Below are positions 1-14,708 of a DNA stretch of 14,708 nt, piece by piece; positions within the stretch are counted from its first letter, which is position 1, and each line of letters opens with the position of its first letter. This stretch comes from Candidatus Terraquivivens tikiterensis. Its GTDB lineage: Archaea; Thermoproteota; Nitrososphaeria_A; Caldarchaeales; Wolframiiraptoraceae. A model generated the notes under the pieces. That model was not told the origin of the DNA and made no database searches. It saw only the letters and a program-made list of their open reading frames with translations. The translations under genes were made by a program, and so were the position numbers. The stretch covers positions 1 to 14,708 of the forward strand of contig NDWU01000028.1 in NCBI GenBank assembly GCA_003056285.1. The letters run 5' to 3'.

Positions 1-215
1 GGTAAAGCTCCTTGTGGTTAGACAAGTCACCAATACTCCTCGACATTCCCATCAACCTTTGCCTCCAACCCTGCGACCCCTCCCCTGGGTCAGCGTGTTC
101 TCCATCTACGCTCGCGGCGTCCAGCAAAGGTCGAGACGCTTTTACCTAAAATTCTTTAACGTCAGGCGTGCGGCATCCTATTTGCCGTAGAACATGTGTC
201 GTGAAGTCGTAAACG

Positions 216-1583
216 CTAGCCCTGCACCGTAGGCCCTTCGCCGGGTTTACTTCCTACACCATCCTCGGCTTTTTTAACAGTTAGGGTTCCGTCCTCCATC
301 AGCCTCACGATGACCCTGCTCCCCTCGCTCAACCCCATCTTCTCGGCAACCTCCGCAGGTATGCTTATCCTCCTGCCAGAGAGGACCTTCTGTAACCTGT
401 CGACGACTGGCATGACATCGGTTTTCTGCTCAGTCTCCTTTTCCTTCCCTTCCTCGCAGAGCTGCTCCTTAGAGTCGGTCTTAGTAAGTTTTCTATCAGA
501 TGCCCTCTTGAAGATCTTGGAGAGCTTTGTGACCGCGAATCCCGCAATACCTGCGGCTTGTGCTATCGCGATCCAAACAACCAATGTCCTCTCCCAGCTT
601 GCAACTGCGTACTGCTGGCTCAGGCTCTTGTATTCCTCTTCGCTTTCCTTCAACGACCTCTGTAGGCTTCCTATCTTCTCTAGGGCGTCATCATACCTTG
701 CCCGAAGGTCTTTGTATTCCTTCTTCAGCTCGTCGTATAGCGTCGTTAGTATCGTGTACTCCTTGGTGAGCGAGCTGTAGTCTGAGCTGAGGTTTTCGTA
801 TTCATGCCTTAGGCTCTCCTCGGACTTTAGCAACGAGTCGTACCTATCGCGAAGCGTGGCGTATTGTGTAGAGAGGTTGAGATAGCTATGACGGATGGAT
901 GAAAGCTCCGCATCCAGCTTTGATATATTATCCTTCAGCTGTACGTTGAGAGCCTCGGCTGATGCGAGCCTGTACTTTAGCAACCCGTTTTCAACCTCCA
1001 AGGCATTAACCAGCTCGTTCAGCTTCGAGACTTCATCCCTAAGCCTGCTCGCTTCCAACCTTAGCGCGCTAACGGCACTCCTTAGGCTTGAAACCTCGGA
1101 CTGGAGCGCGCTTATCGTAGACTTTGCGGCGTCAAGCTCTGCCGTCAGTTCTGAATAGTACTTATCCCTGACGGTCGCCATGTAAAACTCCTGTAGCAGG
1201 CCTCCGCTTGCATAGGTGGCGTTAATCCTTGCGGATACGAGCGTGCCGAGCGTCGACGGCGGACAGAGCGTCAGCACACCGCTATACGCCAAGCCAGGCC
1301 CACCGCTGAAAGATGTTACGACGTAGGCGTCGTAGAGCGTCGCGGTAGACGAGGCCGTATGGTAGATGACTTTTAGGTGCACGTTGAGGTTCGATACGGT
1401 TTTCAGGACGGTCACGTCAACCCTTACGCTGAAGCAAGTGCTTGGCTTCACTTCCGTCGGGTAGCCCAGGTCTATCTTGACGGAACCATCGTTTATGCTC
1501 ATGGCGAAGGCCTCTGCGTTGGCGCTGGGTATGAAGAGAGCTAACGCGATGAACAGCAGAAGAATATAACGATGCCCCCTCAA
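216..1583 (-). CDS. Membrane-anchored coiled-coil protein: signal peptide, beta-rich ectodomain, ~190-aa heptad coiled coil, one TM helix, C-terminal cytoplasmic SpoVT/AbrB-like domain
   Basis: 455-aa ORF with a TTG start at 1583; there is no in-frame ATG until after the hydrophobic leader. The N-terminus MRGHRYILLLFIALALFIPSANA/EA has a basic n-region, a hydrophobic core and an A-x-A type end. Residues ~141-328 show unbroken heptad periodicity. Residues 333-353 (TLVVWIAIAQAAGIAGFAVTK) form a hydrophobic helix followed by a K/R-rich stretch. Residues ~393-436 (RLQKVLSGRRISIPAEVAEKMGLSEGSRVIVRLMEDGTLTV) fit the SpoVT/AbrB swapped-hairpin pattern. An AT-rich TATA-like box lies at 1621-1635 on the minus strand. 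Confidence 0.8.
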   Translation of the reverse strand: MRGHRYILLLFIALALFIPSANAEAFAMSINDGSVKIDLGYPTEVKPSTCFSVRVDVTVLKTVSNLNVHLKVIYHTASSTATLYDAYVVTSFSGGPGLAYSGVLTLCPPSTLGTLVSARINATYASGGLLQEFYMATVRDKYYSELTAELDAAKSTISALQSEVSSLRSAVSALRLEASRLRDEVSKLNELVNALEVENGLLKYRLASAEALNVQLKDNISKLDAELSSIRHSYLNLSTQYATLRDRYDSLLKSEESLRHEYENLSSDYSSLTKEYTILTTLYDELKKEYKDLRARYDDALEKIGSLQRSLKESEEEYKSLSQQYAVASWERTLVVWIAIAQAAGIAGFAVTKLSKIFKRASDRKLTKTDSKEQLCEEGKEKETEQKTDVMPVVDRLQKVLSGRRISIPAEVAEKMGLSEGSRVIVRLMEDGTLTVKKAEDGVGSKPGEGPTVQG

Positions 1584-1650
1584 GCCTGAAGCCCCTGTTG
1601 CTTTTTTGCCCGTAGCGCATATTAATTTTACTATACAGGGCGCTACGCCG

Positions 1651-3117
1651 TCACATACCTATCCAAGATTTTACGGCGCTTACTATTATGCTGAGGATCG
1701 GCGCGTTAGCAAACCCAAATAGGATGACCAGAAGCAGTAGGACACCCATCGGGAATACCATGCTGGCGGGCGCCTCCTTTGCCCCCTCGTGCCTAGATTC
1801 CAGGAAGAATACTGCCCTTACCATCCTGAGATAGTAGGCCGCCGTGATGGCTGTCGCGAGTATGGCAACGGACGCCAATAACGCCTTACCGGACGCGAAG
1901 GCTCCAGAGAATATCATCCACTCGCTCGCGAAGCCTCCAAGCGGAGGGGTCCCAGCTATCGACAGGCCTGCTACGAGCATCGTCATGGCAGTGACTGGCA
2001 TCCTTGGGGCTAGGCCTCCGAGCCTCGACAGATCCCTCTCCTTGACGCTGTGTATCAGGGCGCCTGCACCCATGAAGAGCAATCCCTTGGCAAAGCCGTG
2101 GTTAAGGACGTGGAAGAGGCCGCCGGATACGCCCATAGGTGCGAGCGACGAGAGGCCGAAGAGTATGTAGCCCATCTGGCTGATGCTGCTGTAAGCCAAA
2201 AGCCTCTTAACGTCGTTCTGAACGAGCGCCATGATGCCTCCCCAAAGCATCGTCACGACGGCGAGCGGCATAAGCCAAGCAGACATCTCCGAGACGGCCG
2301 CCGGCATGAGGCCGAGGAGTAGCCTTGCGAAGGCGTAGACCCCGGTCTTTATCATAACGCCGCTCAAGAGGACGCTTATGGGCGTTGGCGCCTCCGCATG
2401 GGCGTCTGGAAGCCACGTGTGGAACGGGAATACTGCCATCTTAACTGCCGCCCCCACGAACACCAGCGCAGCTATGCCCAGCAGGGACGTCCTGTGGATT
2501 TCGTAGGCACGGGGAACGCTCCCTAAGAGTAACGACATATCCATGCTGCCGAATATGGAATTCAGCCAAGCTATGCCGAGGAGCATGCAGAGGGCGCCAG
2601 CATGCGTGAAGAGGAAGTACTTGAAGCCTATGAGCCTAGGGTTACCCGTTCCCCAGTACGCTATGAGGAAGTAGGATGGGATGAGCATGATCTCCCAGAA
2701 TATGTATAGCATGAATAGGTTCCAGGATAGGACGACGCCCATCATGCCCGTTTGGAATATCTGGAGCAGCGGGTAGTAAACCTCTAACCTGCTCTCGTGC
2801 TCCATGTACCTATGAGAGTAAACGCTAGCTAAGAAGCCCATGAGCGATATGAGCAGCGCGAAAGGGTAGCTTAAGCTGTCGAGCATGAAGCTCAGGTTAA
2901 GGCCGAACGCTGGTATCCAGCCGTATGCCTCGTAGAGCCGCTTACCGTCCATTATAGCCGTTGCGTGGTAAAGGATTATCAGGAAAGGTATTAAACAGGA
3001 GGCATGGGACAAGGCTGCCCCGTACTTCCATGAGCGCCTACCTAACAAGTAGGTGAAGGGCGAGGCGATTAATGGAAGAAAAACGCTAAAGATGAGGGCG
3101 TAACCCATTCCCGTCAT
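1651..3117 (-). CDS. nuoM: Proton-conducting membrane transporter, NuoM / MrpD-like antiporter subunit (complex I subunit M/N family)
   Basis: 488-aa polytopic membrane ORF. It carries family hallmarks: WEIMLIPSYFLI, HTWLPDAHAEAPTPISVLLSGVMIKTGVYAFARL and KRLLAYSSISQMGY. Its ATG overlaps the upstream gene's TGA by 4 nt (ATGA at 3114-3117), which indicates translational coupling. Confidence 0.88.
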   Translation of the reverse strand: MTGMGYALIFSVFLPLIASPFTYLLGRRSWKYGAALSHASCLIPFLIILYHATAIMDGKRLYEAYGWIPAFGLNLSFMLDSLSYPFALLISLMGFLASVYSHRYMEHESRLEVYYPLLQIFQTGMMGVVLSWNLFMLYIFWEIMLIPSYFLIAYWGTGNPRLIGFKYFLFTHAGALCMLLGIAWLNSIFGSMDMSLLLGSVPRAYEIHRTSLLGIAALVFVGAAVKMAVFPFHTWLPDAHAEAPTPISVLLSGVMIKTGVYAFARLLLGLMPAAVSEMSAWLMPLAVVTMLWGGIMALVQNDVKRLLAYSSISQMGYILFGLSSLAPMGVSGGLFHVLNHGFAKGLLFMGAGALIHSVKERDLSRLGGLAPRMPVTAMTMLVAGLSIAGTPPLGGFASEWMIFSGAFASGKALLASVAILATAITAAYYLRMVRAVFFLESRHEGAKEAPASMVFPMGVLLLLVILFGFANAPILSIIVSAVKSWIGM

Positions 3118-5030
3118 GCACGAATGCCCCCGAAAAGCATGATCAAGAATATCGCTAAGAGTATCGCGATTCCCAGCGCGTACCCGCTGACGTTGACGTT
3201 GCTGCTACCTGTCTGCAGGTACCTGAAGGCTTGGACGAAGGACTGCGTAGCCCTAGCAAGCGCGTAGTTAAAGCCATCTATGACCTTCTCCTCAACGTAC
3301 TTCCTGACCTTCGAAGAAAGCCAGAGCGTTCCATCCACAAAAACCCTGTAGTATGCGTGGTCTATGTAGTACCTGTTCACCAGCAACTTGTGAAGCGCAG
3401 AACCCAAACCGTTTTTCCTCATAGCCGATGGGTCGATTAGGGGGGTGCCCCTAGATACTGCTGAGAGGTAGAAGGCGTAGGCAAGCGATAGGCCGGATGC
3501 CAGTATGACGGCCGAGGTTGCGTACGCTGCGGGGCTAGGACCAAAGTGGTTATGAAGGCCGACGTACCCTGCGAACTGTTCCTCGAAGAGGCCGACAAGT
3601 AGGCTGAGTCCTGCGAGGGCTATCAGAGGCACCGTCATGACCTTTGGGGCCTCGCGTGCGTGGGAGGAGCTTGGGCCTGGGGGCGATAGGAAGATCTTAT
3701 AAACCCACCTCATGATGTAGGCGACGGTCAGAATCGATGTAAGAACGACGAGAAGGTAGACTACCGTATTGCCGGCCTCGAGCGATGCCTCTATTATTAG
3801 GTCCTTGCTGAAGAAGCCGCTGAAGGGCGGTACACCAGAGAGCGCGAGCGCGCCAAAAAGGGAGGCGGTGAACGTGAGCGGCATCCTCCTTGCCAGCCCA
3901 CCCATCTCGTCGATGTCGTTCGTATGGACAGCGTGGATTACCGCTCCAGCCGAGAGGAATAGCAGGGCCTTGAATACGCTGTGGCTTAGGACGTGGAACT
4001 GGCTGGAGAACCATCCGAGCTCAGATGACAGGCCGAGGGCGGCGAACATCAGCCCAAGCTGGCTTATAGTAGAGTATGCAACCACCCTCTTTATGTCGTT
4101 CATCACGAGGCCCATCGTCGCTGCCATGAAAGCCGTTACCGCCCCTATCGTCGCTACCGTCTCGTACCAAGGAGCCAGGATTCTGCCGAAGGCTTCTATA
4201 GGGGCGATCGTGAGAGCCGTCCTGGCAACCAGGTATACGCCGGCTTTTACCATCGTAGCCGCGTGGATGAGGGCGCTGACCGGTGTCGGCCCCTCCATGG
4301 CATCCGGTAGCCAGACGTGTAGGGGGAACTGGGCCGATTTCCCCATGGCACCCCCAAAGATGAGCAGCATGCACGCAAGAACGAAACCTTGGGCACCGGG
4401 GTCCTTTGAGACAAGCTCCTCCAGACCGGCAGAGAGCCCGCGTACGCTAAACGTACCGATGGATCTGTAAAGTAAGAGTATGCCTATTAAGAACGCCGCA
4501 TCGCCAACCCTGGTCGTAATGAACGCCTTTATTCCAGCATGCGCGGCTGACGGCTTCCTATACCAGAAACCAATCAGGGCGTAAGAGCACACCCCTACTA
4601 TCTCCCAGAATACGTAAGTTTGTAGCAGGTTATCGGAAAGTACGAGGCCTACCATAGCACCTACGAAGAAGAGCATGAAGAAGTAATACCTAGGAAGCCC
4701 TTCCTCGTGCTCCATGTAGCCTAAGGAGTATAGGATGATGAGCGTGCCGAGGAAGGATGCGATCGAGGCGAACAACACGGATAAAGGGTCCACGAGGACG
4801 CCTGCCTCAACCCAGCTGCCGTCGGGCATGGGCATCCACTTTATCCTCTCTTCTATAGCCCTCCCTCCCCATACGTCGAAGACCATGGAGAGGGAGAAGA
4901 CGGCAGAGGCTGAGGCCACGGCTACTGGATAAATCTCGCCCGCCCTTTTGCTCAGCCTGAAAAACGCGGGGACGAAAACGGAGCCGACGATGGGTATCAG
5001 CCAAGAAAGCCATGCTGCGGACGGCAACAT
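3114..5030 (-). CDS. nuoL: Proton-conducting membrane transporter, NuoL / MrpA-like antiporter subunit with C-terminal lateral-helix extension
   Basis: 638-aa polytopic membrane ORF. It has WEIVGVCSYALIGFWY, HVWLPDAMEGPTPVSALIHAATMVKAGVYLVART and KRVVAYSTISQLGLMF. The C-terminal extension (IDGFNYALARATQSFVQAFRYLQTG plus a final TM) is typical of the NuoL/MrpA long amphipathic helix. Confidence 0.88.
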   Translation of the reverse strand: MLPSAAWLSWLIPIVGSVFVPAFFRLSKRAGEIYPVAVASASAVFSLSMVFDVWGGRAIEERIKWMPMPDGSWVEAGVLVDPLSVLFASIASFLGTLIILYSLGYMEHEEGLPRYYFFMLFFVGAMVGLVLSDNLLQTYVFWEIVGVCSYALIGFWYRKPSAAHAGIKAFITTRVGDAAFLIGILLLYRSIGTFSVRGLSAGLEELVSKDPGAQGFVLACMLLIFGGAMGKSAQFPLHVWLPDAMEGPTPVSALIHAATMVKAGVYLVARTALTIAPIEAFGRILAPWYETVATIGAVTAFMAATMGLVMNDIKRVVAYSTISQLGLMFAALGLSSELGWFSSQFHVLSHSVFKALLFLSAGAVIHAVHTNDIDEMGGLARRMPLTFTASLFGALALSGVPPFSGFFSKDLIIEASLEAGNTVVYLLVVLTSILTVAYIMRWVYKIFLSPPGPSSSHAREAPKVMTVPLIALAGLSLLVGLFEEQFAGYVGLHNHFGPSPAAYATSAVILASGLSLAYAFYLSAVSRGTPLIDPSAMRKNGLGSALHKLLVNRYYIDHAYYRVFVDGTLWLSSKVRKYVEEKVIDGFNYALARATQSFVQAFRYLQTGSSNVNVSGYALGIAILLAIFLIMLFGGIRA

Positions 5031-5136
5031 GATTAAAAATAGAATCCTTTAACAATCATTTAAACGTTGAGCTTCTCGGGATACCTGACCGCTCTACAGA
5101 TACGCATTTATACCATGCTTTACGTCGCAATAACCA
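5031..5136. promoter_or_regulatory. Divergent promoter region with two TATA-like boxes
   Basis: TTTAAA at 5059-5064 lies ~31 nt upstream of the minus-strand ATG at 5030. TTTATA at 5107-5112 is centred ~27 nt upstream of the plus-strand GTG at 5137, consistent with a leaderless transcript. Confidence 0.45.
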
Positions 5137-5436
5137 GTGATCGGGTTGGAGATCGTGCTGAGGGTAAGCCCGGAGAACGTCGATAGGGCAAGGAGCGTGC
5201 TGTTAAACGACGACGTCGTGTCAAGGGCCAACGTCCTGTTTAGGGATGCGAGGATACTGGAAAGGGATGGATACTACGTTAGAATAATAGGGACCGAGGA
5301 GCAGTGCTCAAAGGCCTTAGAGCTAACGAGGGGCATGGCGGAGGAGGTCAAGGGCGAGGAAAGGGAGGCTGTGCTCTCCAAGCTAAGGGAAGAGGGGGAT
5401 GCGGCCATGAAGGGTTTTAGGATGATCTTTGGCTAG
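5137..5436 (+). CDS. Small acidic hypothetical protein (99 aa) with a ribosomal-stalk-like C-terminal tail
   Basis: GTG-initiated ORF placed at leaderless distance from a TATA-like box. The composition is protein-like. The C-terminus is EEGDAAMKGFRMIFG. I did not recognise a family. Confidence 0.6.
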   Translation: MIGLEIVLRVSPENVDRARSVLLNDDVVSRANVLFRDARILERDGYYVRIIGTEEQCSKALELTRGMAEEVKGEEREAVLSKLREEGDAAMKGFRMIFG

Positions 5437-5470
5437 TCAGCCCGACTCTCTCGGAAACGTTGGGTGATGC

Positions 5471-5480
5471 TTAAATATTT
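5471..5480 (+). promoter_or_regulatory. TATA-like box upstream of the radical SAM gene
   Basis: TTAAATATTT at 5471-5480 predicts a transcription start near 5500. It is followed by GGTGATC (5512-5518), which matches the 3' part of the archaeal SD consensus GGAGGTGATC, and then by ATG at 5521. This argues against the longer 5464 start. Confidence 0.4.
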
Positions 5481-5520
5481 TCGAAAAAGAATGCAAATAC
5501 CGCGCCGCAACGGTGATCGG

Positions 5521-7110
5521 ATGGGCAGACGAATAGTCCTAACCTGCGACAGAACCCTGACGAGCGAGTATAGACACGTACCGCTCCTCGACTTCCTCCC
5601 CTGCGCGCCTTCCGAGAAGGTCCCGGAGTTTCTCTTCAAATTTCTGGCACCGCAGATACCTGCGGTAGAAGGCATCTTGCCCTATGCACCCTACGGTCTT
5701 AGAAAGGTTGAGGCATCGCTGCTAAGGGAATATAGCGATAAGGATGTGGTGGTTGCCCATCCCGACTACGTGGAGAGCTTCATCGACGAGGATACAAGGG
5801 TCGTTGGAATATACGAGATGGACCCGCTGGGCCTGGGTCCTTTAAGCCTCGCTTTCACGACAGGCCAATTTACATCCTTCTCGAAAAAATACTTCTTTGA
5901 GCTCATCGACAAGCTCAATTCGATAAGAAGCTCTAAGGGGCTTACGTTCAAGATCGTTGTGGGCGGCCCTGGCTCATGGTACTTAGACGTGAGGCCCCAG
6001 GTAAGGAGTGAGCTTAAAATAGACCACGTGGTCATAGGCGAGGCGGACCACGTAGCACCGCTGCTCTTCAAGGAGTTCGAGGAAGGAGACCCGCCCGAGA
6101 CTATAAAGATTACAAAGCCGCCGAGGTTGGAAGAAATACCTCTGATAGTCAACCCAAGCATACACGGTCTCGTTGAGGTCATGAGGGGTTGCGGCAGGAA
6201 CTGTCAATTCTGCGACCCTACCCTTAGGGTTGCTAGGTACATTCCGGTGGAGAACGTGCTAGAAGAGATCAAGGTTAACACGATGCACGGGATCCATAAC
6301 GCATGGGTCCATAGCGAGGACATCTTCCTGTACAGGGTTGAGGACAGGAAGAACTTCTACCCGAACAGGGATGCGCTCGTAGAGCTTTTCTCAGCCGTGA
6401 CGTCGTCACAGGGCATAAGGCACAGTAACCCGACGCACGGAACCGTGGCGCCGGCGGCAGCCGACCCACTTCTCATACACCAGCTCTCGAGGGTGCTGAG
6501 GGGTTCTCCGGAACACTGGATAGGAATACAGTGCGGGATGGAGACGGGCTCTGGAAGCTTGCTTGCCAGGTACATGCCCCTGAAGGCCAAGCCGTTCAGC
6601 CCTGAGGAGTGGCCCGAGGTCGTAATAAACGGTACTGCTGTATTCAACATGAACTACTGGTTCCCGGGCTTCACGCTGTTGACCGGTCTTCCTACAGAAA
6701 CCGACGACGACGCGTGGGATACCGTCAGACTCTTAGATGCCATGGAAAGGATCCTGCCCGAGAAGCTAGGCGAGAAAGCCCACTTCACGGCAACGCCCCT
6801 ATTCTTTGTTCCGATGGGAGTATTGAGCGGCGAGGAGTTCTTTGACGCAAGGAATTTGACGGAGGCGCAGATGTGCGTGATATACAGGGCATGGAGGCAC
6901 ATACTCATAGAGCTGAACAACCTTCCGCCCCGGCTGATAAAGCTGAACCCGATCCTGAAGCTGGCGTTTAACATCATATCCCACTTCGGCGCCAACCTAG
7001 TGGTAAAGGTCATAGAGAAGTCAGCGAAGTCCATGGGTTACGACGTCTCGAAGGCCCTGAGGGTTAGCCCGATGGAGGTGAGGGTTAGCCTACCCCAGCT
7101 TCCCGCTTAG
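5521..7110 (+). CDS. Radical SAM protein with an N-terminal Rossmann/B12-binding-like domain (COG1032-like Fe-S oxidoreductase)
   Basis: The CxxxCxxC motif GCGRNCQFC (C243/C247/C250 of the 548-aa ORF, nt 6190-6213) is preceded by a VVGGPGS glycine-rich strand. The ORF is open from 5464 (GTG), but the TATA box and SD-like element favour ATG 5521 (MGRRIVLTCD...). Confidence 0.85.
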   Translation: MGRRIVLTCDRTLTSEYRHVPLLDFLPCAPSEKVPEFLFKFLAPQIPAVEGILPYAPYGLRKVEASLLREYSDKDVVVAHPDYVESFIDEDTRVVGIYEMDPLGLGPLSLAFTTGQFTSFSKKYFFELIDKLNSIRSSKGLTFKIVVGGPGSWYLDVRPQVRSELKIDHVVIGEADHVAPLLFKEFEEGDPPETIKITKPPRLEEIPLIVNPSIHGLVEVMRGCGRNCQFCDPTLRVARYIPVENVLEEIKVNTMHGIHNAWVHSEDIFLYRVEDRKNFYPNRDALVELFSAVTSSQGIRHSNPTHGTVAPAAADPLLIHQLSRVLRGSPEHWIGIQCGMETGSGSLLARYMPLKAKPFSPEEWPEVVINGTAVFNMNYWFPGFTLLTGLPTETDDDAWDTVRLLDAMERILPEKLGEKAHFTATPLFFVPMGVLSGEEFFDARNLTEAQMCVIYRAWRHILIELNNLPPRLIKLNPILKLAFNIISHFGANLVVKVIEKSAKSMGYDVSKALRVSPMEVRVSLPQLPA

Positions 7111-7165
7111 CATGCCAAAAGGTTCAATAAGCCCTGCGCCTTACAGGATTACTAGCCGGGGAAAG

Positions 7166-7255
7166 GCCGGGGTTGGCGAAGAGCCACCGAAGGCCGAGCA
7201 GCTAGGCGGCGGCCTGCAGAGCCGCTCTACTCGGGTGCAAATCCCGACCCCGGCT
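7166..7255 (+). tRNA. tRNA-Cys (anticodon GCA) with ~18 extra nt between position 8/9 and the D stem (putative non-canonical intron)
   Basis: - Acceptor stem GCCGGGG (7166-7172) pairs with CCCCGGC (7248-7254), 7 perfect bp.
- Discriminator is T7255.
- T arm is TCGGG-TGCAAAT-CCCGA (7231-7247).
- Variable loop is TCTAC.
- Anticodon arm is GCGGC-CTGCAGA-GCCGC (7209-7225) with T33, anticodon GCA at 7216-7218 and G37.
- D arm is GCCG-AGCAGCT-AGGC (7193-7207).
- Total length is 90 nt against ~72 expected. The surplus block (~7174-7192) contains its own hairpin TGGC-GAAGA-GCCA.
- CCA is not encoded. Confidence 0.75.
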
Positions 7256-7339
7256 TCGCCGTTGAATTCATGGACTCGGCGAGGTTTAAATGAGCCGGCA
7301 GCACCAATCCGTCTCAGTCAGCTGTTTGCTTCCGAATTG

Positions 7340-7350
7340 TTTAAATAAAA
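7340..7350 (+). promoter_or_regulatory. TATA-like box for the excisionase-type HTH ORF
   Basis: TTTAAATAAAA is centred ~29 nt upstream of ATG 7373, consistent with a leaderless transcript. Confidence 0.4.
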
Positions 7351-7372
7351 CTTTATTTTCTTTATTACTTTG

Positions 7373-7602
7373 ATGGAATACGAGGATCTCATTACTCCTA
7401 AGGAGGCTAGGGCCTTGCTAAAGGTCAGCAACAAGACTTTGTGGTCATGGTATAAGAAGGGTTTGATAAGGGCCGTAAGGCTTCCGACAGGAAAGCTCGG
7501 TACTACAGGAGCGGCATTGAGAGGGTCCTGAAGGGCGTGAGGGTGGAGGCGTTCGAGCATTGCTCAACGTTAGGCCTTTGCCCCAAACTTTTAGCGAGAT
7601 GA
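7373..7602 (+). pseudogene. Excisionase/MerR-type (HTH_17-like) DNA-binding protein, interrupted by a frameshift
   Basis: Frame 0 (7373-7531) reads MEYEDLITPKEARALLKVSNKTLWSWYKKGLIRAVRLPTGKL, then GTTGAALRGS and a stop. The family-typical continuation RYYRSGIERVLKG... is in the -1 frame starting at 7498 and runs to the stop at 7600-7602. This is consistent with loss of one base near CTC/CGG at 7496-7500. The ORF is below the 60-aa cutoff of the supplied track. Confidence 0.6.
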
Positions 7603-7677
7603 TGCATGCCTGGCGCTCGTGTACAAGAATACGTTGTAGAAACAGAGGCCCTGCATCTACCTAATCCAGTTTTCAAC

Positions 7678-7685
7678 GTTAAATC
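7678..7685 (+). promoter_or_regulatory. TATA-like box for the HTH/coiled-coil and KaiC-like operon
   Basis: GTTAAATC is centred ~26 nt upstream of ATG 7708. This supports the internal ATG (MSEEEISL...) as a leaderless start rather than the ATG at 7606. Confidence 0.4.
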
Positions 7686-7707
7686 CAAGCACGATCAACG
7701 ATATAGT

Positions 7708-8271
7708 ATGTCCGAAGAAGAGATAAGCCTGGCACCTGTCGGGCGGCAACAGATTCACAGGCTGGAGTCGGCGCTGCTGCTGGGCACGCTATTCAGGCCA
7801 GAGGTACTCGAGGCTCTAAGAAACCCTGAGGAAAGGCTGACGTGGGTCGATTCGCTGGCTGTAGCAGCGGCCGCGATAGCAAGGGAACGTGCTAAGATGA
7901 CGGTGAGCCAGATAGCCGAGGAGCTCGGAAGGGCTGAGCAGACGATCCGTAATCACATCCAGGGGAAGACGAAGGCCGGGCATTTCGTAAAAGAGACGTT
8001 GCAGCGCTTCATGAAAGAGGGCGTCAAGATACAGCTTCCTGCATCGATTTTCTCAGAGGCATCCGCCCAGACATTAGCTGAGGTCCCGGCCGATGCGGAG
8101 CGGCTAAAACAGGAAAGCGAGAGGTTGAGGCAAGAGGTGGAGAGCCTCAGGTCGCTGCTGGAAGAGGAGCAGAGGGCTAGGCGTAAAGTCGAGGAGGAGT
8201 TGGCTGGCTTAAAGGAAGTTATAACAAACGTCAGACGAATGCTTGAGGCCGCACTGAATCAGTTGCCATAG
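7708..8271 (+). CDS. HTH DNA-binding protein with C-terminal coiled coil
   Basis: The HTH-like segment MTVSQIAEELGRAEQTIRNHIQG lies at nt 7897-7965. A charged heptad segment ERLKQESERLRQEVESLRSLLEEEQRARRKVEEELAGLKEV lies at nt ~8092-8250. The ORF is open from 7606, but the first 34 codons (7606-7707) look non-coding and overlap the predicted promoter. Confidence 0.75.
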   Translation: MSEEEISLAPVGRQQIHRLESALLLGTLFRPEVLEALRNPEERLTWVDSLAVAAAAIARERAKMTVSQIAEELGRAEQTIRNHIQGKTKAGHFVKETLQRFMKEGVKIQLPASIFSEASAQTLAEVPADAERLKQESERLRQEVESLRSLLEEEQRARRKVEEELAGLKEVITNVRRMLEAALNQLP

Positions 8272-8286
8272 CTGGGTGGTGAAGAC

Positions 8287-9030
8287 ATGCCAGTCGAGCG
8301 CGTGCAAACCGGCATACCTGGGTTCGACGAGGTGCTGCATGGAGGAATACCACGAAGGAACGTAGTGCTGATCTCCGGCGGCCCGGGAACGGGTAAGTCT
8401 ATTCTGGGCCAGCAGTTCTTGTACGAGGGGCTAAAGCTAGGAGAGCCCGGAGTCCTCGTCGTGCTCGAGGAGCACCCTGTCCAGATACGGGTAGACATGG
8501 CCCAGTTCGGCTGGAAAGTAAAGGAATATGAGGAGAAGGGCTTGTTCGCCATAGTCGATGCTTTCACGGCCGGCATAGGGGAGGCTGCGAAGAAAGAGCG
8601 CTACGTCGTGAGAGCTCCGGACGACTTTAACTCTTTGGCTGACACCATGAGGCAGGCGATAAAAGACCTCCAGGCCCAGCGTGTCGTCGTCGATTCTGTC
8701 ACGACGCTCTACATAACCAAACCATTCCTGGCACGCTCGACAGTCCTCCAGCTCAAGAAGATCCTATCAGGATTGGGATGTACCTCGCTCCTCATCTCCC
8801 AAGTTAGCGTAACGGAGCGGGGCTTCGGCGGTCCTGGCGTCGAGCATGCCGTCGACGGCATAGTCCGCTTAGATTTGGACGAGGTTGACGGAGAGCTGAA
8901 AAGAAGCATACTAGTTTGGAAGATGCGCGGTACGAGTCACTCGATGCGCAGGCATCCCTTCGATATAACGGATAAGGGAATAGTAGTCTACGCAGATAAG
9001 TCTATCGCACCGTCGAGGATGGGTGAATAG
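8287..9030 (+). CDS. Single-domain KaiC-like / RecA-superfamily ATPase
   Basis: The N-terminus has the [31 protein letters not shown] Walker A block (nt 8377-8400). Walker B is RVVVDSV. LLISQV and the KMRGTSHS...[14 protein letters not shown]-terminal block are typical of the KaiC/RadA-paralog family. An SD-like GGTGGTGA (8275-8282) lies 4 nt upstream of the ATG, and the gene starts 15 nt after the upstream stop, so the two are probably co-transcribed. Confidence 0.9.
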
Positions 9031-9208
9031 CGTGGCCTTTGGGCGCCTTGTTCGTACAAGTCCTTAAACGCCATGCCGGAGAATCTTGGAAACCTGTTAA
9101 TCGTTGACCCGTGCCCTTCTCATACGGTTACCGTCTTAGAGCCAGCGAGGCGTATCGTGGGACCTGACAGCATGCATCTTCGGATCCATCAGATGCGGAG
9201 GTGATGGG

Positions 9209-9526
9209 TTAGGCAAGCCTCCTAGCGGCAACCCTCGCTAAGTCCATTACGAGGCAGGATGAAATGGGCCGGGCACCAGCCTTCTTCCTGTGAAGCTTGA
9301 TCCTTCCGCCCGTGAGCTGGCCGAGGAAGAAAGCTACTACGAACAGAGGTATGAGGACTGGGTCAACCCCGCTCATGAACCTCAGCGCGAATATCAAAGG
9401 CACGGGCAAGTGGATGGCCATTATCCACTGCTTCGAGAACCTCTTCGTATCCGCTCTCCAATAACCGAACGGCACATTCAGTAAATAGACGAACGCTAGG
9501 AGGGATGCCAGGAGTGAGGCTGACAA
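9209..9526 (-). CDS. Small hypothetical membrane protein (about 3 TM helices)
   Basis: 105-aa ORF with a TTG start. Hydrophobic helices are SLLASLLAFVYLL, WIMAIHLPVPLIFALRF and LIPLFVVAFFLGQL, with basic loops between them. I did not recognise a family, and the start codon is uncertain. Confidence 0.55.
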   Translation of the reverse strand: MSASLLASLLAFVYLLNVPFGYWRADTKRFSKQWIMAIHLPVPLIFALRFMSGVDPVLIPLFVVAFFLGQLTGGRIKLHRKKAGARPISSCLVMDLARVAARRLA

Positions 9527-10084
9527 ATCGCGTCCGTTAAATGTTTTGGTACTGTCTGGGATTTATGTTTTACACAGAGCATCCCTTTTCTTCTTAGTAG
9601 ATGCTCGACGGAGAAGGGCGTCGTGGGTACATCGCGGATCTTTGCCCGCCGTAGGAAACAATAACATAAACAGGCATAGGATCTTGAGCGATTTGTCGTA
9701 AAAGCGCGGACAGAATGATGATGCTGTTAAGCTTGAGATGTGGGGGACTTTCCCCATACGTATGACCCCAAGCTCGAAAGGGCATGGAAGAAGACGTACG
9801 GGGCGGGTTCGACCCGAAGGGCGATGCCGGCCTCCCATGAGCCAAGAGGAGGACAAGGTCTACGTAGAGGCCAGAACCCTAACCTTACCCTATTATTTTA
9901 TTAAAGCTCTTTGGGGATGACTGCTCACGGCATCCGAAGGCTAAGACCGCAGGATACCTCAAAACGTTAAACAAAATCCCTTGCGCCATCCGTGAGCCTT
10001 CGCATAACCAACAATAAACGGAGAATTTTTAGCCAATTGCTCAAGAAATTATCACAAGAACTTCATAAAATCGAGCGTTTAAAG

Positions 10085-10094
10085 TTTATATATT
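10085..10094 (+). promoter_or_regulatory. TATA box for the ArsR-family gene
   Basis: TTTATATATT is centred ~27 nt upstream of ATG 10117, consistent with a leaderless transcript. Confidence 0.45.
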
Positions 10095-10116
10095 AATTTT
10101 TTATTGTAAAAATGTA

Positions 10117-10431
10117 ATGTCAAGTTTATTTACTGAAGAGCAGCTGGAGCGCGTCTCAAAGCTCTTCGGTGCATTGGGCAACAAGACTAGGCTCAGGATG
10201 CTCTTGATGGTGGCCGAAAGCAAGAGGCCGCTCCACATAAAGGCGATCGCAAAGGGCCTAAGGATGGACTATGCTGCCGTCTATAGGCACGTGAAGGTGC
10301 TCGAGGGAGCCGGCATAGTCGAGGTATACGAGGTCGGTAGGTCTAGGGTCCTTTCGCTCAAGAACCAAGGCTGGCTAATCGAGCTACTCTCAAAAACGAT
10401 TGAAACAATTCGGGTAAATGAGCTCGTATAA
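10117..10431 (+). CDS. ArsR/SmtB-family winged-HTH transcriptional regulator
   Basis: LFGALGNKTRLRMLLMVAESKRPLHIKAIAKGLRMDYAAVYRHVKVLEGAGIVEVYEVGR matches the ArsR HTH_20 pattern (xxLadptRlriLxxL...sxxxvsxHLkxLxxaGlv). The protein contains no cysteine at all, so it lacks the ELCVCDL-type Cys metal site and is not an obvious thiolate metal sensor. Confidence 0.85.
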   Translation: MSSLFTEEQLERVSKLFGALGNKTRLRMLLMVAESKRPLHIKAIAKGLRMDYAAVYRHVKVLEGAGIVEVYEVGRSRVLSLKNQGWLIELLSKTIETIRVNELV

Positions 10432-10525
10432 TTTAAAATATAATTTGCCAAAATTGTCATATTAATTTAACAGAAAGATTTTTATAACTAAACGAATAAG
10501 ATAAAACAAGTTACGAGGGGTCGTC

Positions 10526-11107
10526 TTGAACTCTAGGTGTTGGGCCTTCGCGGCGATGATGGGAGCCTTAGGAAACGCTTTGGCGGCTTTAACGGTCATT
10601 CCGACGATGGTCCAGCAGGTTGCGCTCGACTTTTCCCTCCTTCCCGCTATCATTGCCGGCATATACGGAGGCTGGGCCTTGGGTGGCCTGACCGGCTTCA
10701 TAGCAGGGATCCTTCCCTCTATATGGTTCGGGCCTCTTGGAAGCCTTGGGCCCTTGGGCATAACCGCCTGCATAGGAAAGGCCATTATGGGCATCACGGT
10801 CGGCCTGCTCTCAAGAGCCTTCAAGAGGTGGCTTGACAAGAGGACTTGGCTTTATGTACCATTGGTGGCTGTAGCCTTCCTGCCAGAGGCTGTTTGGATA
10901 TACATAGTCTTTGCTGTCATGGTACCGCTCTTCCTGCCGGCTGCGCCTGCCTTTCTGCCAGGCTTATGGGCACCGATACTCCTGAAGGGCTCTTTCGAGG
11001 TAGCCGTGATGGGGTTCTTTACTGCAGCCCTCGCAGGCCACAACGGCTTCAAGAGCCAGATCCTCTCATTCCTAACACCTCAAACGCTACCCGTTAAGAA
11101 AACCTGA
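10526..11107 (+). CDS. Polytopic membrane protein, ECF-transporter S-component-like
   Basis: 193-aa ORF with 5-6 hydrophobic helices. The segment VALDFSLLPAIIAGIYGGWALGGLTG resembles the S-component signature (xDLsxhPhhhxxhhxGxxxG). TTTATAA at 10481-10487 and GAGGGG at 10515-10520 precede the TTG start at 10526. An ATG at 10556 is an alternative start but would truncate TM1. Confidence 0.65.
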   Translation: MNSRCWAFAAMMGALGNALAALTVIPTMVQQVALDFSLLPAIIAGIYGGWALGGLTGFIAGILPSIWFGPLGSLGPLGITACIGKAIMGITVGLLSRAFKRWLDKRTWLYVPLVAVAFLPEAVWIYIVFAVMVPLFLPAAPAFLPGLWAPILLKGSFEVAVMGFFTAALAGHNGFKSQILSFLTPQTLPVKKT

Positions 11108-11181
11108 AAAACACATTTTTACCCAAAAATAGGTAGAAACTAAAGTTTAAGTAAATCTTTAGTATACCATACTCCGGCGGC

Positions 11182-11877
11182 ATGGAGCACGAAAAGCCTT
11201 CGAGGAGCCTAATGGTCGCCGTCGCGGCCATGTTCGGAGGACTTTCCTCTGCCGTTACCATGCTGAGGCTCAGCTTTCCGTTTCCGCCCCTGCCTTACCT
11301 TAAGTTTGACCTAGCGGAGCTACCGGTCATCTTTTCTTTCTTGGCTTTTGGGCCAACACTGGGCCTTTTTACGTCGCTCGTGTACTGGGCGGCGTTAACC
11401 CTCATGACGGTCGGTGAGTGGCTTTGGCCTATAGGTCCCTTCATGAAGTTCTTGGCGGTAGTCTCGATGCTTGCAGGGATCTGGGCGGGTTCAAGAGGGC
11501 TCGTGAACTCTAAGAGATACGGCATCGGCCTGCTCATGCTCCGCATGGGTCTGCTTTCAGCATCGGTCAGGGCGGCCATCATGGGTGTGATGAATTACGT
11601 AATATTGGTCATAGTGGCGCCGGAGTCCCTTGCCTTCGTTAATTCATTGCTTTCGGCGACGCTGGGCTTGAGGCTAGGCTCCGAGGCCGAGCTGATCACC
11701 CTCGTCATAGCGCTTACGGCGGCCTATAACGTAGCCCACGCAGCCTTATCCTTGGTGCCCCCGGCCGTAGCCGTCCAAAGTGTTGAAAGGATAGGTGCCT
11801 TCTATAGGATGGCTGGTGGCTCTTGGATGGGAAACCTCGTGGAAAGGCGGGCAGTAGCTCATAAATACATGGATTGA
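11182..11877 (+). CDS. Polytopic membrane protein, ECF-transporter S-component-like
   Basis: 231-aa ORF with ~6 TM helices. LKFDLAELPVIFSFLAFGPTLGLFTSLVY closely resembles the conserved loop1/TM2 motif of ECF S components (RibU/ECF_trnsprt type). A TATA-like TTTAAGTAAA at 11146-11155 lies ~27-31 nt upstream of the ATG. Confidence 0.7.
   Translation: MEHEKPSRSLMVAVAAMFGGLSSAVTMLRLSFPFPPLPYLKFDLAELPVIFSFLAFGPTLGLFTSLVYWAALTLMTVGEWLWPIGPFMKFLAVVSMLAGIWAGSRGLVNSKRYGIGLLMLRMGLLSASVRAAIMGVMNYVILVIVAPESLAFVNSLLSATLGLRLGSEAELITLVIALTAAYNVAHAALSLVPPAVAVQSVERIGAFYRMAGGSWMGNLVERRAVAHKYMD
11861..11869 (+). promoter_or_regulatory. Possible internal TATA box for nikR inside the 3' end of the upstream gene
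   Basis: ATAAATACA is centred ~29 nt upstream of ATG 11894. nikR could therefore be leaderless with its own promoter as well as read through from the upstream gene. Confidence 0.3.
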
Positions 11878-11893
11878 TTCTTAATTTTTAGAT

Positions 11894-12301
11894 ATGGTTA
11901 GAAGGGGCGTAGCCAGGGTTAGCATATCCATACCGCCCGACTTGCTGAAAGAGCTTGACAGCATGCTCGAGAAGGTAGGCTACGATAGGTCGAGGGCCGT
12001 GCAGATAGCGATAAGGAACTTCCTAACGGAATACAGATGGGTCCACGAGCAAGGCGAGGTTGCGGGTGCCCTCCTGCTACTATACGACCATAAGAGGAGG
12101 GGCGTGGAGGAATCTTTGACCGACATCCAGCACGAGCACGGAAGCGTCATCACGTCTACGATGCACATACATCTAGACGAGGACAACTGCTTGGAGATAG
12201 TTGCTGTGAGGGGGAGCTCGAGGAGCATAAAGGAGCTCGCAGAAAAGATGATGAGAGAAAAGGGCGTAAAGCAGCTCAAGCTGGCCATCCTCGCATCGTA
12301 G
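11894..12301 (+). CDS. nikR: Nickel-responsive regulator NikR (ribbon-helix-helix plus C-terminal metal-binding domain)
   Basis: The N-terminal RHH segment is RVSISIPPDLLKELDSMLEKVGYDRSRAVQIAIRNFL. The C-terminal block QHEHGSVITSTMHIHLDEDNCLEIVAVRG parallels the NikR high-affinity Ni-site region (His/His/Cys pattern HxH...HxHxxxxxCLE). Confidence 0.9.
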   Translation: MVRRGVARVSISIPPDLLKELDSMLEKVGYDRSRAVQIAIRNFLTEYRWVHEQGEVAGALLLLYDHKRRGVEESLTDIQHEHGSVITSTMHIHLDEDNCLEIVAVRGSSRSIKELAEKMMREKGVKQLKLAILAS

Positions 12302-12324
12302 GCTCGGAAAGCATACCTTGTCGA

Positions 12325-13284
12325 TCAGCTCAGCATCTTCATGAGCCCTTCTGCCACCTCGAAGGCCTTTTTCATGGTTTGCTCCGGCAACCTTCCGGCC
12401 GCGCAGGCCTCCCTTGGCTCCTCCTGGTCGATCATGCTCGGCTCCTTCCCAAAAGGCTTCACGACGTCCACACCGAGGTCCACGTACTTGACGTAAGTGT
12501 CGTACATCTCTATCGGCGTGCATACGCTGTAGTACTCGCCCTTGAGGTTGCCGTTCAAGGAGTAGTACTTCGTGGCCGTATACATGCACCCCTTCCTAAG
12601 CTCGGTTATGGCATAGTCCCCTGGCGACTTCGGTATGTTGAGGCCATCGTACACGCCTCCCCCGATTATCCTCCTCTGAACCTTAACGACGCCCTCTTTC
12701 CTCCATACAACCCTGGCCGGGCCGATGACGATGTTCCTTCCGTTCAGCTTCGAGTGGACTATACGTATAAGGCTACCGAGCCTGGGCGTCAGTCTGGATA
12801 CGTGCTCCCTAAACACCGGATAAACCTTTTCCGGTTGGAGGAGGCCTTCCTCGAGCATCTGCTCCGCGAAAGAAACCATCAGCGAAAGCCCCTCGCTACC
12901 AGCCCTACAGAAGTGGTGCCAAGGTACGGTATAGGTTACCTCGCTCCTGAGCACGTCGAGCTCCAGCTTCGCGTCCAGCGGGAACGCGGCTACGAGTTGG
13001 ACGAGGTCGTGAGAGCTTTTGGTCTTCATCACATCTCCGACGAATATCGTGGACGGGACGCCCATTTTTAGTACATCGACGAACTCTTCCACGTATTCCA
13101 TTTTTCCCAAGATTTTAATGGCATGCTTATCCTGCGTATCGCTCAGCACCACGTCTGGCGATTCCATGGTCCATGTCTCAAACCTTTCTTTTTGGGACGG
13201 CGTTGGCGAGGATATTTCGTGCCCGCTCTTGAAAATAAGCCTCAATAACGCAGTAGAGTATATCCCCCTAGCCATAACTTTCAA
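12325..13284 (-). CDS. FAU-1 / RNase E-G-like RNA-binding protein with C-terminal DUF402 domain
   Basis: The N-terminus (MKV)MARGIYSTALLRLIFKSGHEI matches the FAU-1-type start (xRGIYxTALTxLh). The C-terminal YYSVCTPIEMYDTYVKYVDLGVDVV fits the DUF402 pattern (Y.nh.tP......h.yhDL.hDh). The start is TTG 13284 or ATG 13275; each has a TATA-like box at the appropriate distance. Confidence 0.72.
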   Translation of the reverse strand: MKVMARGIYSTALLRLIFKSGHEISSPTPSQKERFETWTMESPDVVLSDTQDKHAIKILGKMEYVEEFVDVLKMGVPSTIFVGDVMKTKSSHDLVQLVAAFPLDAKLELDVLRSEVTYTVPWHHFCRAGSEGLSLMVSFAEQMLEEGLLQPEKVYPVFREHVSRLTPRLGSLIRIVHSKLNGRNIVIGPARVVWRKEGVVKVQRRIIGGGVYDGLNIPKSPGDYAITELRKGCMYTATKYYSLNGNLKGEYYSVCTPIEMYDTYVKYVDLGVDVVKPFGKEPSMIDQEEPREACAAGRLPEQTMKKAFEVAEGLMKMLS

Positions 13285-13367
13285 TTTGCCTATTCACCAT
13301 TAAAGAGCAATATAGATAACGATTACATATACCGACGGGTCGGCAGTTGCCGAGGCCTGCCAATGCA

Positions 13368-13649
13368 TCATTGCTGAGCAGCCCTTACAGTTTCTAGCAA
13401 CGACATCGCCATCCAAAGCTGGGTTCTCGTGAAAGGCGGCATATTCGGGTCGGAGATTATCTCGTCGATTATCTCGATGGCGTTCGCCGCCCTTACGGCC
13501 GGTATGAACCTTTCGTCGAAAAGAGCCTCGCTAGCAGATTTGGCCGCCCTCCTTATGTTCCTGGGCGTACCGGTATCGTTCGCTATAGCCTCAAGTATCT
13601 GAACTATCTGCTGCCTTTTCTCCTCCCATGCTTGCTTAGATTCGGACAT
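13368..13649 (-). CDS. UPF0147 family protein (conserved archaeal small protein)
   Basis: DTGTPRNIRRAAKSASEALFDE...RAANAIEIIDEIISDPNMPPFTRTQLW matches the UPF0147 signature (vPRNIRRaA...LDEIsnDPNmP..tRT). The ORF is open to ATG 13715 (115 aa). The internal ATG at 13649 is preceded by GGAGG with a 10-nt spacer and gives the family-typical ~93 aa. A TATA-like CTATAAATAG lies at ~13756-13765. Confidence 0.8.
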   Translation of the reverse strand: MSESKQAWEEKRQQIVQILEAIANDTGTPRNIRRAAKSASEALFDERFIPAVRAANAIEIIDEIISDPNMPPFTRTQLWMAMSLLETVRAAQQ

Positions 13650-14024
13650 CAAGAGCAAACCTCCTTCTTGAGCCGGCATAAGTTTTTCTTCTTTTTGAGT
13701 TAGCTTAGGCGACATTTAAGAATTTCGGGTTTAACATCGTGAGCAGAAACCACGCTATTTATAGGCGGGATGAAGGCGAGCAGCATTTTCCCTCCTGCTT
13801 CTACTTTTGCGTAGGGTTAGGATGTGCGGGATCGGGTCATGTCGTTAGGAAGGAAGCCGCTGGCTTAAGCCGTCGTGTAGCTCACTTGGAAATGCTAAAT
13901 TAAAAATTCTGAAGGTCTGGTTCCCAGGCTCAGCTACGGGCCGTTTAGCTCTGGAGGCTTAACGTTTGAGTTTTCCGCTGACCATGCCACGGACGGTAGA
14001 TGTATTTTTGAAGCTAAAAACTAA

Positions 14025-14708
14025 TTACCATAACCTGCCGAGCAAAGCCTCGTTTATCTTATTAAGACTTTCCTCGACTTTGCTTTTGCACTCTAGCGTC
14101 ACAAACCCCTCATACCCTCTTTTACACAAAACATCCAGGACCCTTCGCCACGGAACCTTTCCAGCATCCAGCGGAAGGTGCAGGTCGTGCAAGCCGTCGT
14201 TGTCATGTAGATGAACGTTCATGATCTTCTCGTAAAACCTCCTCAAAAAACCGTCAATGCTCCCATCTACGTAGGCATGGCCTACGTCTAAACAGAGACC
14301 AAGGTTTTTTGATGAGGCTGTATCAAAGAGCATAACGAAATCTTCTATGCCGCTGAGGTATGCGCTTTCCCTTGACATACAGTTCTCTACGAGTAAGTTT
14401 ATTCCAAATCTTGAGGCCATGTGTGAGAGTTTCTCTAAGCTTTCGACAGTGCTATCAAGATTTTCGTACCGTGGAGCGTGAACCACGACATGGGTTGAGC
14501 GTAGGAGCCCTGCTAGGGATATGGTAACCTCCATCCTTTTAAACCAAAAGTGTCCGAACGTCAACGGATTGTAGGGGCCGTGGACGTTTATAGCCAAGCT
14601 GCTTGGCGCTGCTCTCCTATAGCCCTGAATCTTTTCGACGTCCAGCTCGTTAGGCTTCTCATCTATTACCTCCCACGCATTAACCCTTACGCTCTTCATC
14701 CACTCTAC
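14025..14708 (-). CDS. Sugar phosphate isomerase/epimerase, xylose-isomerase-like TIM barrel (AP endonuclease 2 family), probably 5'-truncated by the window edge
   Basis: Motifs seen are VHGPY, VVVHAP, LLVEN, DVGHAY and NVHLHDNDGLHDLHLPLDAGKVPW (metal-ligand His/Asp/Glu pattern of the family). The reading frame stays open (V-E-W) upstream of ATG 14699 to position 14708. The HxPY motif sits unusually close to the N-terminus, so the true start is probably outside the window. Confidence 0.85.
   Translation of the reverse strand, partial: VEWMKSVRVNAWEVIDEKPNELDVEKIQGYRRAAPSSLAINVHGPYNPLTFGHFWFKRMEVTISLAGLLRSTHVVVHAPRYENLDSTVESLEKLSHMASRFGINLLVENCMSRESAYLSGIEDFVMLFDTASSKNLGLCLDVGHAYVDGSIDGFLRRFYEKIMNVHLHDNDGLHDLHLPLDAGKVPWRRVLDVLCKRGYEGFVTLECKSKVEESLNKINEALLGRLW

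Follow-up and report, generated by a model that had tools for sequence, protein, structure and literature searches.

The DNA that follows a tRNA-Cys gene in the archaeon Candidatus Terraquivivens tikiterensis raises the question of whether the genes placed there are the remains of an integrated mobile element or a chromosomal signaling module. The window analyzed is a stretch of 14,708 nucleotides (nt; contig NDWU01000028.1 of assembly GCA_003056285.1, positions 1 to 14,708) and corresponds to the entire contig C24 of the genome G000, a metagenome-assembled genome (MAG) of 39 contigs and 1.54 Mb, 96.9% complete and with 0.45% contamination. A first-pass annotation, made from the letters alone, had described at this position a three-gene module with an Xis-like helix-turn-helix (HTH) protein, a protein that combines an HTH with a coiled coil and a KaiC-like ATPase. 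Two readings were proposed for it, namely cargo or remnant of an integrated element with a role in replication, partition or defense, or a chromosomal ATPase switch paired with a regulator. The evidence points to the latter. Positions 7708-9030 are probably a functional two-gene operon, formed by a TIGR03877 ATPase and its TIGR03879 partner, that was replaced or relocated to a tRNA-Cys breakpoint scarred by insertion sequences (IS). The relatives used for comparison belong to the same order, in genera that include Terraquivivens, Geocrenenecus, Wolframiiraptor, Benthortus and Pelearchaeum.

The three open reading frames (ORF) of the first description are present on the same strand (7370-7531, 7606-8271 and 8287-9030). 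The last one (8287-9030, + strand) encodes a single-domain KaiC-like ATPase of 247 amino acids, which is of the PH0284 type and belongs to TIGR03877 (thermo_KaiC_1). The protein scores 436.4 bits against this family, with a curated cut-off of 307.25, and one PF06745 KaiC domain spans the residues 6-238 (E 7e-87), so that its initial naming as KaiC-like is confirmed. The Walker A (GPGTGKS), the EE pair (LEEH) and the Walker B (VVVDS) motifs are intact and align to those of PH0284 from Pyrococcus horikoshii, the best solved relative (PDB 2dr3, E 1e-119 over residues 4-241), with an identity of approximately 70% as read from the alignment. The ATPase is placed in this way in a named clade with a solved structure, an outcome that had been named beforehand as refuting the first-pass proposal. 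Assignments to other branches of the superfamily were tried and rejected. The scores are 47 for ArlH (cut-off 215) and 52 for FlaH (cut-off 194), far below the cut-offs for RadA and RadB (24 versus 172 for RadB), and 115 versus 546 for circ_KaiC and 145 versus 408 for another circadian KaiC cut-off. A gap of 15 nt (8272-8286) separates the ATPase gene from the one upstream and, by reading of the sequence, holds a Shine-Dalgarno-like GGTGGTGA (8275-8282, + strand) ahead of the ATG at 8287, as described at the outset.

The upstream gene encodes the partner of the ATPase, a putative regulator that scores 80.7 and 82.9 bits against NCBIfam TIGR03879 ('near_KaiC_dom, probable regulatory domain'; cut-off 65.1). 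In an alignment with its homologues from 24 relatives of the same order, all of these begin with MSEE(I/V)(S/P)L and consist of a domain (about 105 residues) that is highly conserved and a coiled-coil tail (40-90 residues) that is variable. The 34 additional codons of a start at 7606, as first annotated, lie partly in repeat-derived DNA (7530-7644). Because all the relatives share the same beginning and this DNA derives from a repeat, the ATG at 7708 is most likely the translation start, which predicts a protein of 187 amino acids (7708-8271, + strand). The alignment with 26 diverse database homologues has 41 invariant columns, and every one is retained in the window protein, including RLTWVDSLAVAAA... 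and GR.E.T.R.H..GKT.AG. The AlphaFold2 (AF2) model, with a mean pLDDT (predicted local distance difference test) of 88.6, is composed of a six-helix HTH domain (13-104), a disordered flexible linker and a coiled-coil helix of 59 residues. The profile searches and this model agree with the first-pass view that the second ORF unites an HTH domain with a coiled coil. On the other hand, the combination had been regarded as unrecognized, whereas the protein is catalogued as TIGR03879, a family with more than 800 homologues found, and the alignments indicate that the HTH with a coiled-coil tail is the family norm. A Foldseek search of the model against the PDB gave no significant match (best E 0.3). 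Its top matches, all weak, were all-alpha proteins that bind DNA through an HTH (sigma-70 region 4, the DnaA DNA-binding domain and TrpR).

The association of the two genes is conserved across Archaea. Both are adjacent and on the same strand in 24/24 of the relatives' loci that hold the two genes, in 67/80 species-representative genomes (in the remainder, 12 have partners without a nearby KaiC and one has another arrangement) and in 26/30 metagenome loci. The species-representative set spans Nitrososphaeria, Bathyarchaeia, Thermoprotei, Methanomethylicota, Thermococci, Archaeoglobi, Asgard, Hadarchaeota and others. Over the surveyed phyla, the KaiC proteins share on average 74% identity with that of the window, and in many archaeal lineages the values are 68-81%. 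The genes that flank the cassette are not conserved among 61-64 genomes and are housekeeping-like, the most frequent being MgtC (10) and DUF429 (8); outside G000 the cassette has varied neighbors of this kind. By these comparisons the pair appears as a conserved two-gene archaeal cassette, already catalogued and not new. Taken together, the conserved cassette, its housekeeping neighbors and the lack of links to PADLOC, PHROGs or viral contigs (detailed below) fit the reading as a chromosomal ATPase switch with its regulator.

The window departs from this pattern in the gene order. Among the adjacent pairs examined, KaiC comes first in all those of the 24 relatives, the 67 species representatives and the 26 metagenome contigs. 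The partner precedes KaiC only in the window and in L063, a Logan metagenome contig of 1,091 bp (run SRR14241346) in which the partner gene and the first 132 KaiC residues could be compared; no further order-swapped cassette was found in the 80 species representatives or the 30 metagenome loci. L063 and the window share 81% identity in the partner, 93% in the first 132 residues of KaiC and about 80% at the DNA level. Between them, the ratio of nonsynonymous to synonymous substitution rates (dN/dS) amounts to 0.09 in the partner and 0.04 in KaiC, with a dS of about 0.9. Since L063 shares the order, and with these values of dN/dS at such a dS, the swapped arrangement is, on sequence comparison, real, old and under purifying selection. 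Read from the sequence about 27 nt before the ATG at 7708, a TTAAAT box (7679-7684, + strand) is a candidate TATA element and would suit a leaderless transcript that covers both partner and KaiC. A related motif, CAACGTTAAATC, is also present upstream of the partner gene in L063. A motif of approximately AAACGTTTTTGAA is common to seven Terraquivivens and Geocrenenecus loci (L018, L021 and L024-L028), 30-45 nt 5' of the KaiC start, and a similar one, CGTGTTTTTGAA, is found upstream of the L063 partner gene. These last two may serve the cassette as promoter or operator.

The ORF at 7370-7531, which had been called Xis-like, is of another nature. It is included in a decayed fragment (7341-7644, + strand) of a multi-copy IS formed by an HTH_17 gene and TnpB, identified by blastn and by alignment to the copy on contig C5. 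Positions 7341-7604 are 79-85% identical to at least five other sites (C5, C3, C14, C23 and C13), and a piece on C10 matches positions 7530-7644 with 96.5% identity. Intact copies encode an HTH_17 protein of 68 amino acids; on C5, and where C13, C23 and C3 end, its gene overlaps the TnpB start. The C5 TnpB has 397 amino acids, matches NF040570 with 99.7 bits and contains a Cas12f1-like TNB domain. The element measures about 1.4 kb (C5:21121-22508, L071), with fragments at the ends of C13, C23, C3, C10, C19, C22 and C35. Dozens of TnpB-like matches are present in the genome, in which many contigs end in the IS element. Compared with the intact C5 copy, the one in the window has a frameshifting deletion of 1 nt in the HTH ORF, a deletion of 16 nt and a further gap of 1 nt, and lacks both ends and any TnpB. 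Judged from these alignments, the Xis-like ORF is a dead IS fragment outside the KaiC module, and its candidacy as the excisionase of an integrated element was rejected, the ORF being a frameshifted and truncated copy of the HTH gene of this element. The intact copies resemble IS607/IS605-type elements with TnpB in having a small MerR/excisionase-type HTH gene that overlaps the TnpB gene. Their HTH is similar to the N-terminus of the IS607 TnpA; unlike the latter, the protein has only 68 residues and no serine-recombinase domain, and the window copy differs further in being dead and in having lost TnpB. Because the first ORF is an IS pseudogene fragment, the module comprises two genes and not three. 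What stands from the first-pass annotation is therefore the ORFs, the gap, the domains and the pairing of a switch with a regulator, whereas the three-gene membership, the partner start, the unrecognized partner and the excisionase do not.

The tRNA gene that marks the left edge of the locus is not called in the unedited window by ARAGORN, nor by Rfam at the gathering threshold. In an E-value scan, the Rfam tRNA model matches 7192-7247 with 26.1 bits and the anticodon GCA, and ARAGORN yields a tRNA-Cys after about 17 nt of the D-arm region (approximately 7175-7191) are taken out. The last 95-100 nt of the gene have 96-99% identity in three congeners, in comparison with 77.5% for their flanks. 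Given the Rfam score, the ARAGORN result after the intron removal and the congener identity above that of the flanks, the tRNA-Cys(GCA) annotated beside the genes (about 7166-7255, + strand) is a real gene that bears a non-canonical D-arm intron. This intron is kept in the three congeners and hides the gene from standard tRNA finders. A second tRNA missed by ARAGORN is located at C18:18448-18544 (L062); it is apparently a Ser tRNA, whose variable arm is long and whose CCA is encoded. A match of 23 nt on C18, considered as an attachment site (att) repeat, was rejected as the T-arm and acceptor of another, Ser-like tRNA.

The DNA synteny with three Ca. Terraquivivens genomes (G001, G004 and G005) begins at 558 and is lost precisely at 7256, where the tRNA has its 3' end. 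These three congeners hold two different cargoes 3' of the tRNA-Cys, followed by a region that maps to contig C4 of G000 from about 3128. At the other side, the window positions 10041-13732 form a synteny block (block B) that in all five congeners is located elsewhere, between regions matching C18 and C6. Since the synteny stops at the tRNA and block B is found elsewhere in the congeners, the segment 7257-10040 is genome-specific. It has 2.8 kb, begins exactly at the tRNA-Cys 3' end and holds the pair, with the IS fragment (7341-7644) near its left end and a multi-copy repeat (9647-9879) near its right end. The locus is not core chromosome with the same tRNA context in the relatives, as the synteny breaks at the tRNA 3' end. 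In the congeners, the block beside their own pair corresponds to C27 near position 52746, and G000 has glutamate-synthase-like genes there instead. The local peculiarities are consequently the swapped order, the relocation to the IS-scarred tRNA-Cys breakpoint and the loss from the usual site of the genus. Elsewhere in the genus, G001 has only a partner remnant of 53 amino acids (C7:164440-164568, L032) with no adjoining KaiC, and another congener, G006, has no match above the cut-off, which indicates repeated loss of the cassette within the genus.

The phylogeny of the two genes also separates them from the genus. In the KaiC trees, four congeneric proteins form a clade with Geocrenenecus, matching the taxonomy, whereas the window protein and L063 are a long-branch pair outside the genus clade, at the base of a Caldarchaeales-type clade, with a stem branch of 0.26-0.39 substitutions per site. 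The approximately unbiased (AU) test rejects the monophyly of the genus for KaiC (p = 0.0003). The partner sits on a long branch common to L063 only. On the other hand, the GC content and the codon usage of the pair, for which a difference from the surroundings had been considered, are ordinary for G000. No anomaly was detected, with codon scores at the 37th (partner) and 23rd (KaiC) percentiles and GC content at third codon positions (GC3) in the mid-range for the genome.

The closest known system is that of PH0284 ('UPF0273', TIGR03877), which is known from structure alone. It has likewise a single KaiC/RecA domain of about 245 residues and the same Walker A, EE and Walker B motifs, and Thermococcus genomes also have the TIGR03879 partner adjoining. 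The difference is in the order, as the partner is 3' of KaiC in Thermococci and in all other lineages examined and 5' of it in the window. The window partner is similar to other TIGR03879 proteins in its score above the cut-off, the invariant residues, the variable C-terminal coiled coil and the adjoining KaiC gene, and unlike them in being upstream of KaiC, with its own putative promoter and on a long branch with L063 only. Cyanobacterial KaiC is the paradigm of a hexameric ATPase that binds its partners in a state-dependent manner. The window ATPase shares its RecA-fold KaiC domain (E approximately 1e-47 versus CI) and differs in having one domain in place of two, no KaiA or KaiB genes, an HTH partner and scores below the circadian cut-offs. 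With ArlH/FlaH and RadA/RadB only the RecA-fold ATPase core is shared; the scores are far lower than the respective cut-offs and no archaellum or repair genes are nearby.

A working mechanism can be proposed from these features. The partner would dimerize via the coiled coil and bind DNA via the HTH. Depending on its nucleotide state or its autophosphorylation, the ATPase, predicted to be hexameric, would then bind or release the partner, so that this state would become a transcriptional output. Such a conversion corresponds to the 'KaiC hub' model of signal transduction that Makarova et al. reportedly proposed in mBio in 2017. A literature search found no paper on the function of TIGR03877 or TIGR03879. 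As to the history of the locus, the most likely course is that the ancestral cassette was replaced or relocated during the IS-driven rearrangements that mark the genome, and the incoming copy would derive from a divergent, order-swapped lineage under strong purifying selection.

Several observations weigh against this interpretation. What suggests the DNA binding of the partner is a set of HTH profile matches below the Pfam cut-offs together with the family annotation, next to a non-significant fold search, and what suggests its control by the ATPase is the domain content and the operon linkage. With the partner, the AU test speaks against a monophyletic genus at no more than a borderline level (p = 0.057). 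A search of 5.8 billion proteins gave no closer donor lineage, the nearest full-length KaiC being 81% identical and the nearest partner besides L063 57-73%; with no donor lineage, a fast divergence after an internal rearrangement is not separable from a horizontal replacement. The genome is a MAG in 39 contigs, and positions 12994-13885 have a 95.9% identical twin on another contig, which hints at a duplication at a rearrangement breakpoint or at a strain mixture in the bin.

One rival dispenses with any horizontal input. The genus cassette would have been tandem-duplicated, or excised as a circle and re-joined in a permuted form, then moved by IS to the tRNA-Cys, with a fast divergence afterwards. 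The abundance of TnpB copies in the genome and at its contig ends agrees with such a course, as do the size of the genome (1.54 Mb versus approximately 1.2-1.3 Mb in the congeners, about 0.3 Mb larger), the reshuffling of several synteny blocks and the missing donor. A large tree still places the pair at the base of the Caldarchaeales-type clade, and the partner AU test is not significant. An internal course is, however, difficult to reconcile with the length of the KaiC stem branch in a protein otherwise nearly frozen, as its identity to PH0284 illustrates, and with the rejection of genus monophyly for KaiC. The very low dN/dS within the swapped lineage means that there is no ongoing relaxation, and the 15-nt gap has no trace of a duplicated promoter. 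This purely internal course is possible but somewhat unlikely. An assembly chimera that joined the tRNA-Cys, the IS fragment and the cassette would suit the number of contigs, the repeats at 7341-7644 and 9647-9879 and the twin of 12994-13885 on C6 (96% identical). Against a chimera, the longest exact match to the closest repeat copy (C10) has 37 nt and the other copies are only 79-85% identical. The C10 flanks are contiguous in five congeners with no reciprocal cross-over evident, L063 confirms independently, from another sample, the order of partner and KaiC, and the break coincides with the final base of the tRNA, a typical biological breakpoint. An artifact of this kind is very improbable.

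The mobile-element reading retains part of its initial appeal, as the locus is not core-conserved and the pair is displaced from the genus. In its strict form, the segment after the tRNA-Cys would be the remnant of an integrated virus, plasmid or island with the swapped pair as cargo, and the integrase and the distal att would be lost or located off the contig. The synteny break exactly at the tRNA 3' end, the two different cargoes at the same site in three congeners and the patchy distribution of an accessory membrane gene in the segment agree with such an origin. Nevertheless, no integrase domain was found in any window ORF, as noted in the first pass, or in the stretches syntenic with the flanks of the congeners' junctions (C4:1-5000, C18:1-3500 and C27:45000-54000), the genes of which are MFS (major facilitator superfamily), TatD, radical SAM (S-adenosylmethionine), Cmr3, thymidylate kinase, glutamate-synthase-like, HEPN and nucleotidyltransferase. 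Nor is the 3' segment of the tRNA-Cys repeated in the window, again as first noted, and a blastn-short search extended to the whole 1.54-Mb assembly gave none. The supposed Xis belongs to an IS, so that the scars are IS and repeat remnants with neither integrase nor att. The partner has no relative in 2.9 million viral contigs, and PADLOC (mad8 3e-4, Csa3 1e-4) and PHROGs (DnaB-like, 1e-9 over 70 residues) gave only weak generic matches. The ordinary codon usage and GC3, and the housekeeping surroundings of the cassette elsewhere, also argue against this origin, which is unlikely. A bolder version is doubtful to a greater degree. In it, the order-swapped cassette would be a distinct KaiC switch that moves horizontally, with its regulator transcribed first from its own promoter, carried by an unrecognized integrative element that targets tRNA-Cys and displaced the resident cassette. 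A role in anti-virus defense, replication or partition could draw on the RecA-fold ATPases that occur in such systems and on the weak mad8, Csa3 and DnaB-like matches. Those matches are far weaker than the KaiC-family score, and no viral, PADLOC or PHROG link backs the role that had been suggested. The cassette neighbors in more than 60 genomes are housekeeping and mutually unrelated, and the KaiC conservation across archaeal lineages, with PH0284 similarly close, is unlike that of fast-evolving defense genes. This role is scarcely credible. The replaced or relocated two-gene operon is accordingly retained as the probable explanation.

The rest of the genome-specific segment and its borders show other features. 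An accessory membrane protein of 105 amino acids (9209-9526, - strand) has no Pfam or NCBIfam match and a homologue in 1/40 relatives, with 62% identity. The repeat at 9647-9879, of about 230 nt and recovered by blastn versus the whole genome, lies near the right edge of the segment ending at approximately 10040. It has at least 12 copies in G000 with 76-91% identity (C15, C9, C8, C1, C14, C2, C5, C27, C37, C7 and C33), for example at C15:48523-48750, C9:10462-10667, C8:12053-12252 and C1:69930-70103. The repeat is GC-rich, hairpin-dense and almost absent from 40 relatives, and its C5 copy lies immediately beyond the left end of the HTH+TnpB element. From its sequence it looks like a miniature inverted-repeat transposable element (MITE) or an IS-associated repeat. 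The twin region at 12994-13885 (890 bp) comprises the 3' part of a DUF402 gene, a UPF0147 gene and the spacer beyond, and matches C6:3062-3949, where that contig ends. Beyond the twin, C6 keeps the congener synteny and C24 continues differently. At the end of C18, a Cmr3-like gene of the CRISPR type III (C18:55-1077, L059) adjoins a thymidylate-kinase block that in the congeners adjoins the window block 10041-13732, which makes it another rearrangement junction.

The window locus brings no new component to the cassette. For the annotation of similar regions, an HTH_17 ORF beside a tRNA should not be presumed to encode an excisionase; the one in the window comes from the small gene of a TnpB IS. 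The PH0284-type KaiC and its TIGR03879 partner are among the best-conserved uncharacterized two-gene units of thermophilic archaea, with a KaiC about 70% identical, as read from the alignment, between a Thermoproteota MAG and Pyrococcus. If the cassette were indeed carried by an element that targets tRNA-Cys, a 'core' signaling hub would be exchangeable like an accessory gene. The dN/dS of 0.04-0.09 in the swapped lineage indicates that the unit is functional whichever gene comes first, and it can vanish from its usual site and be replaced elsewhere. This flexibility of order and site is useful for the design of complementation or operon engineering of the TIGR03877/TIGR03879 family.

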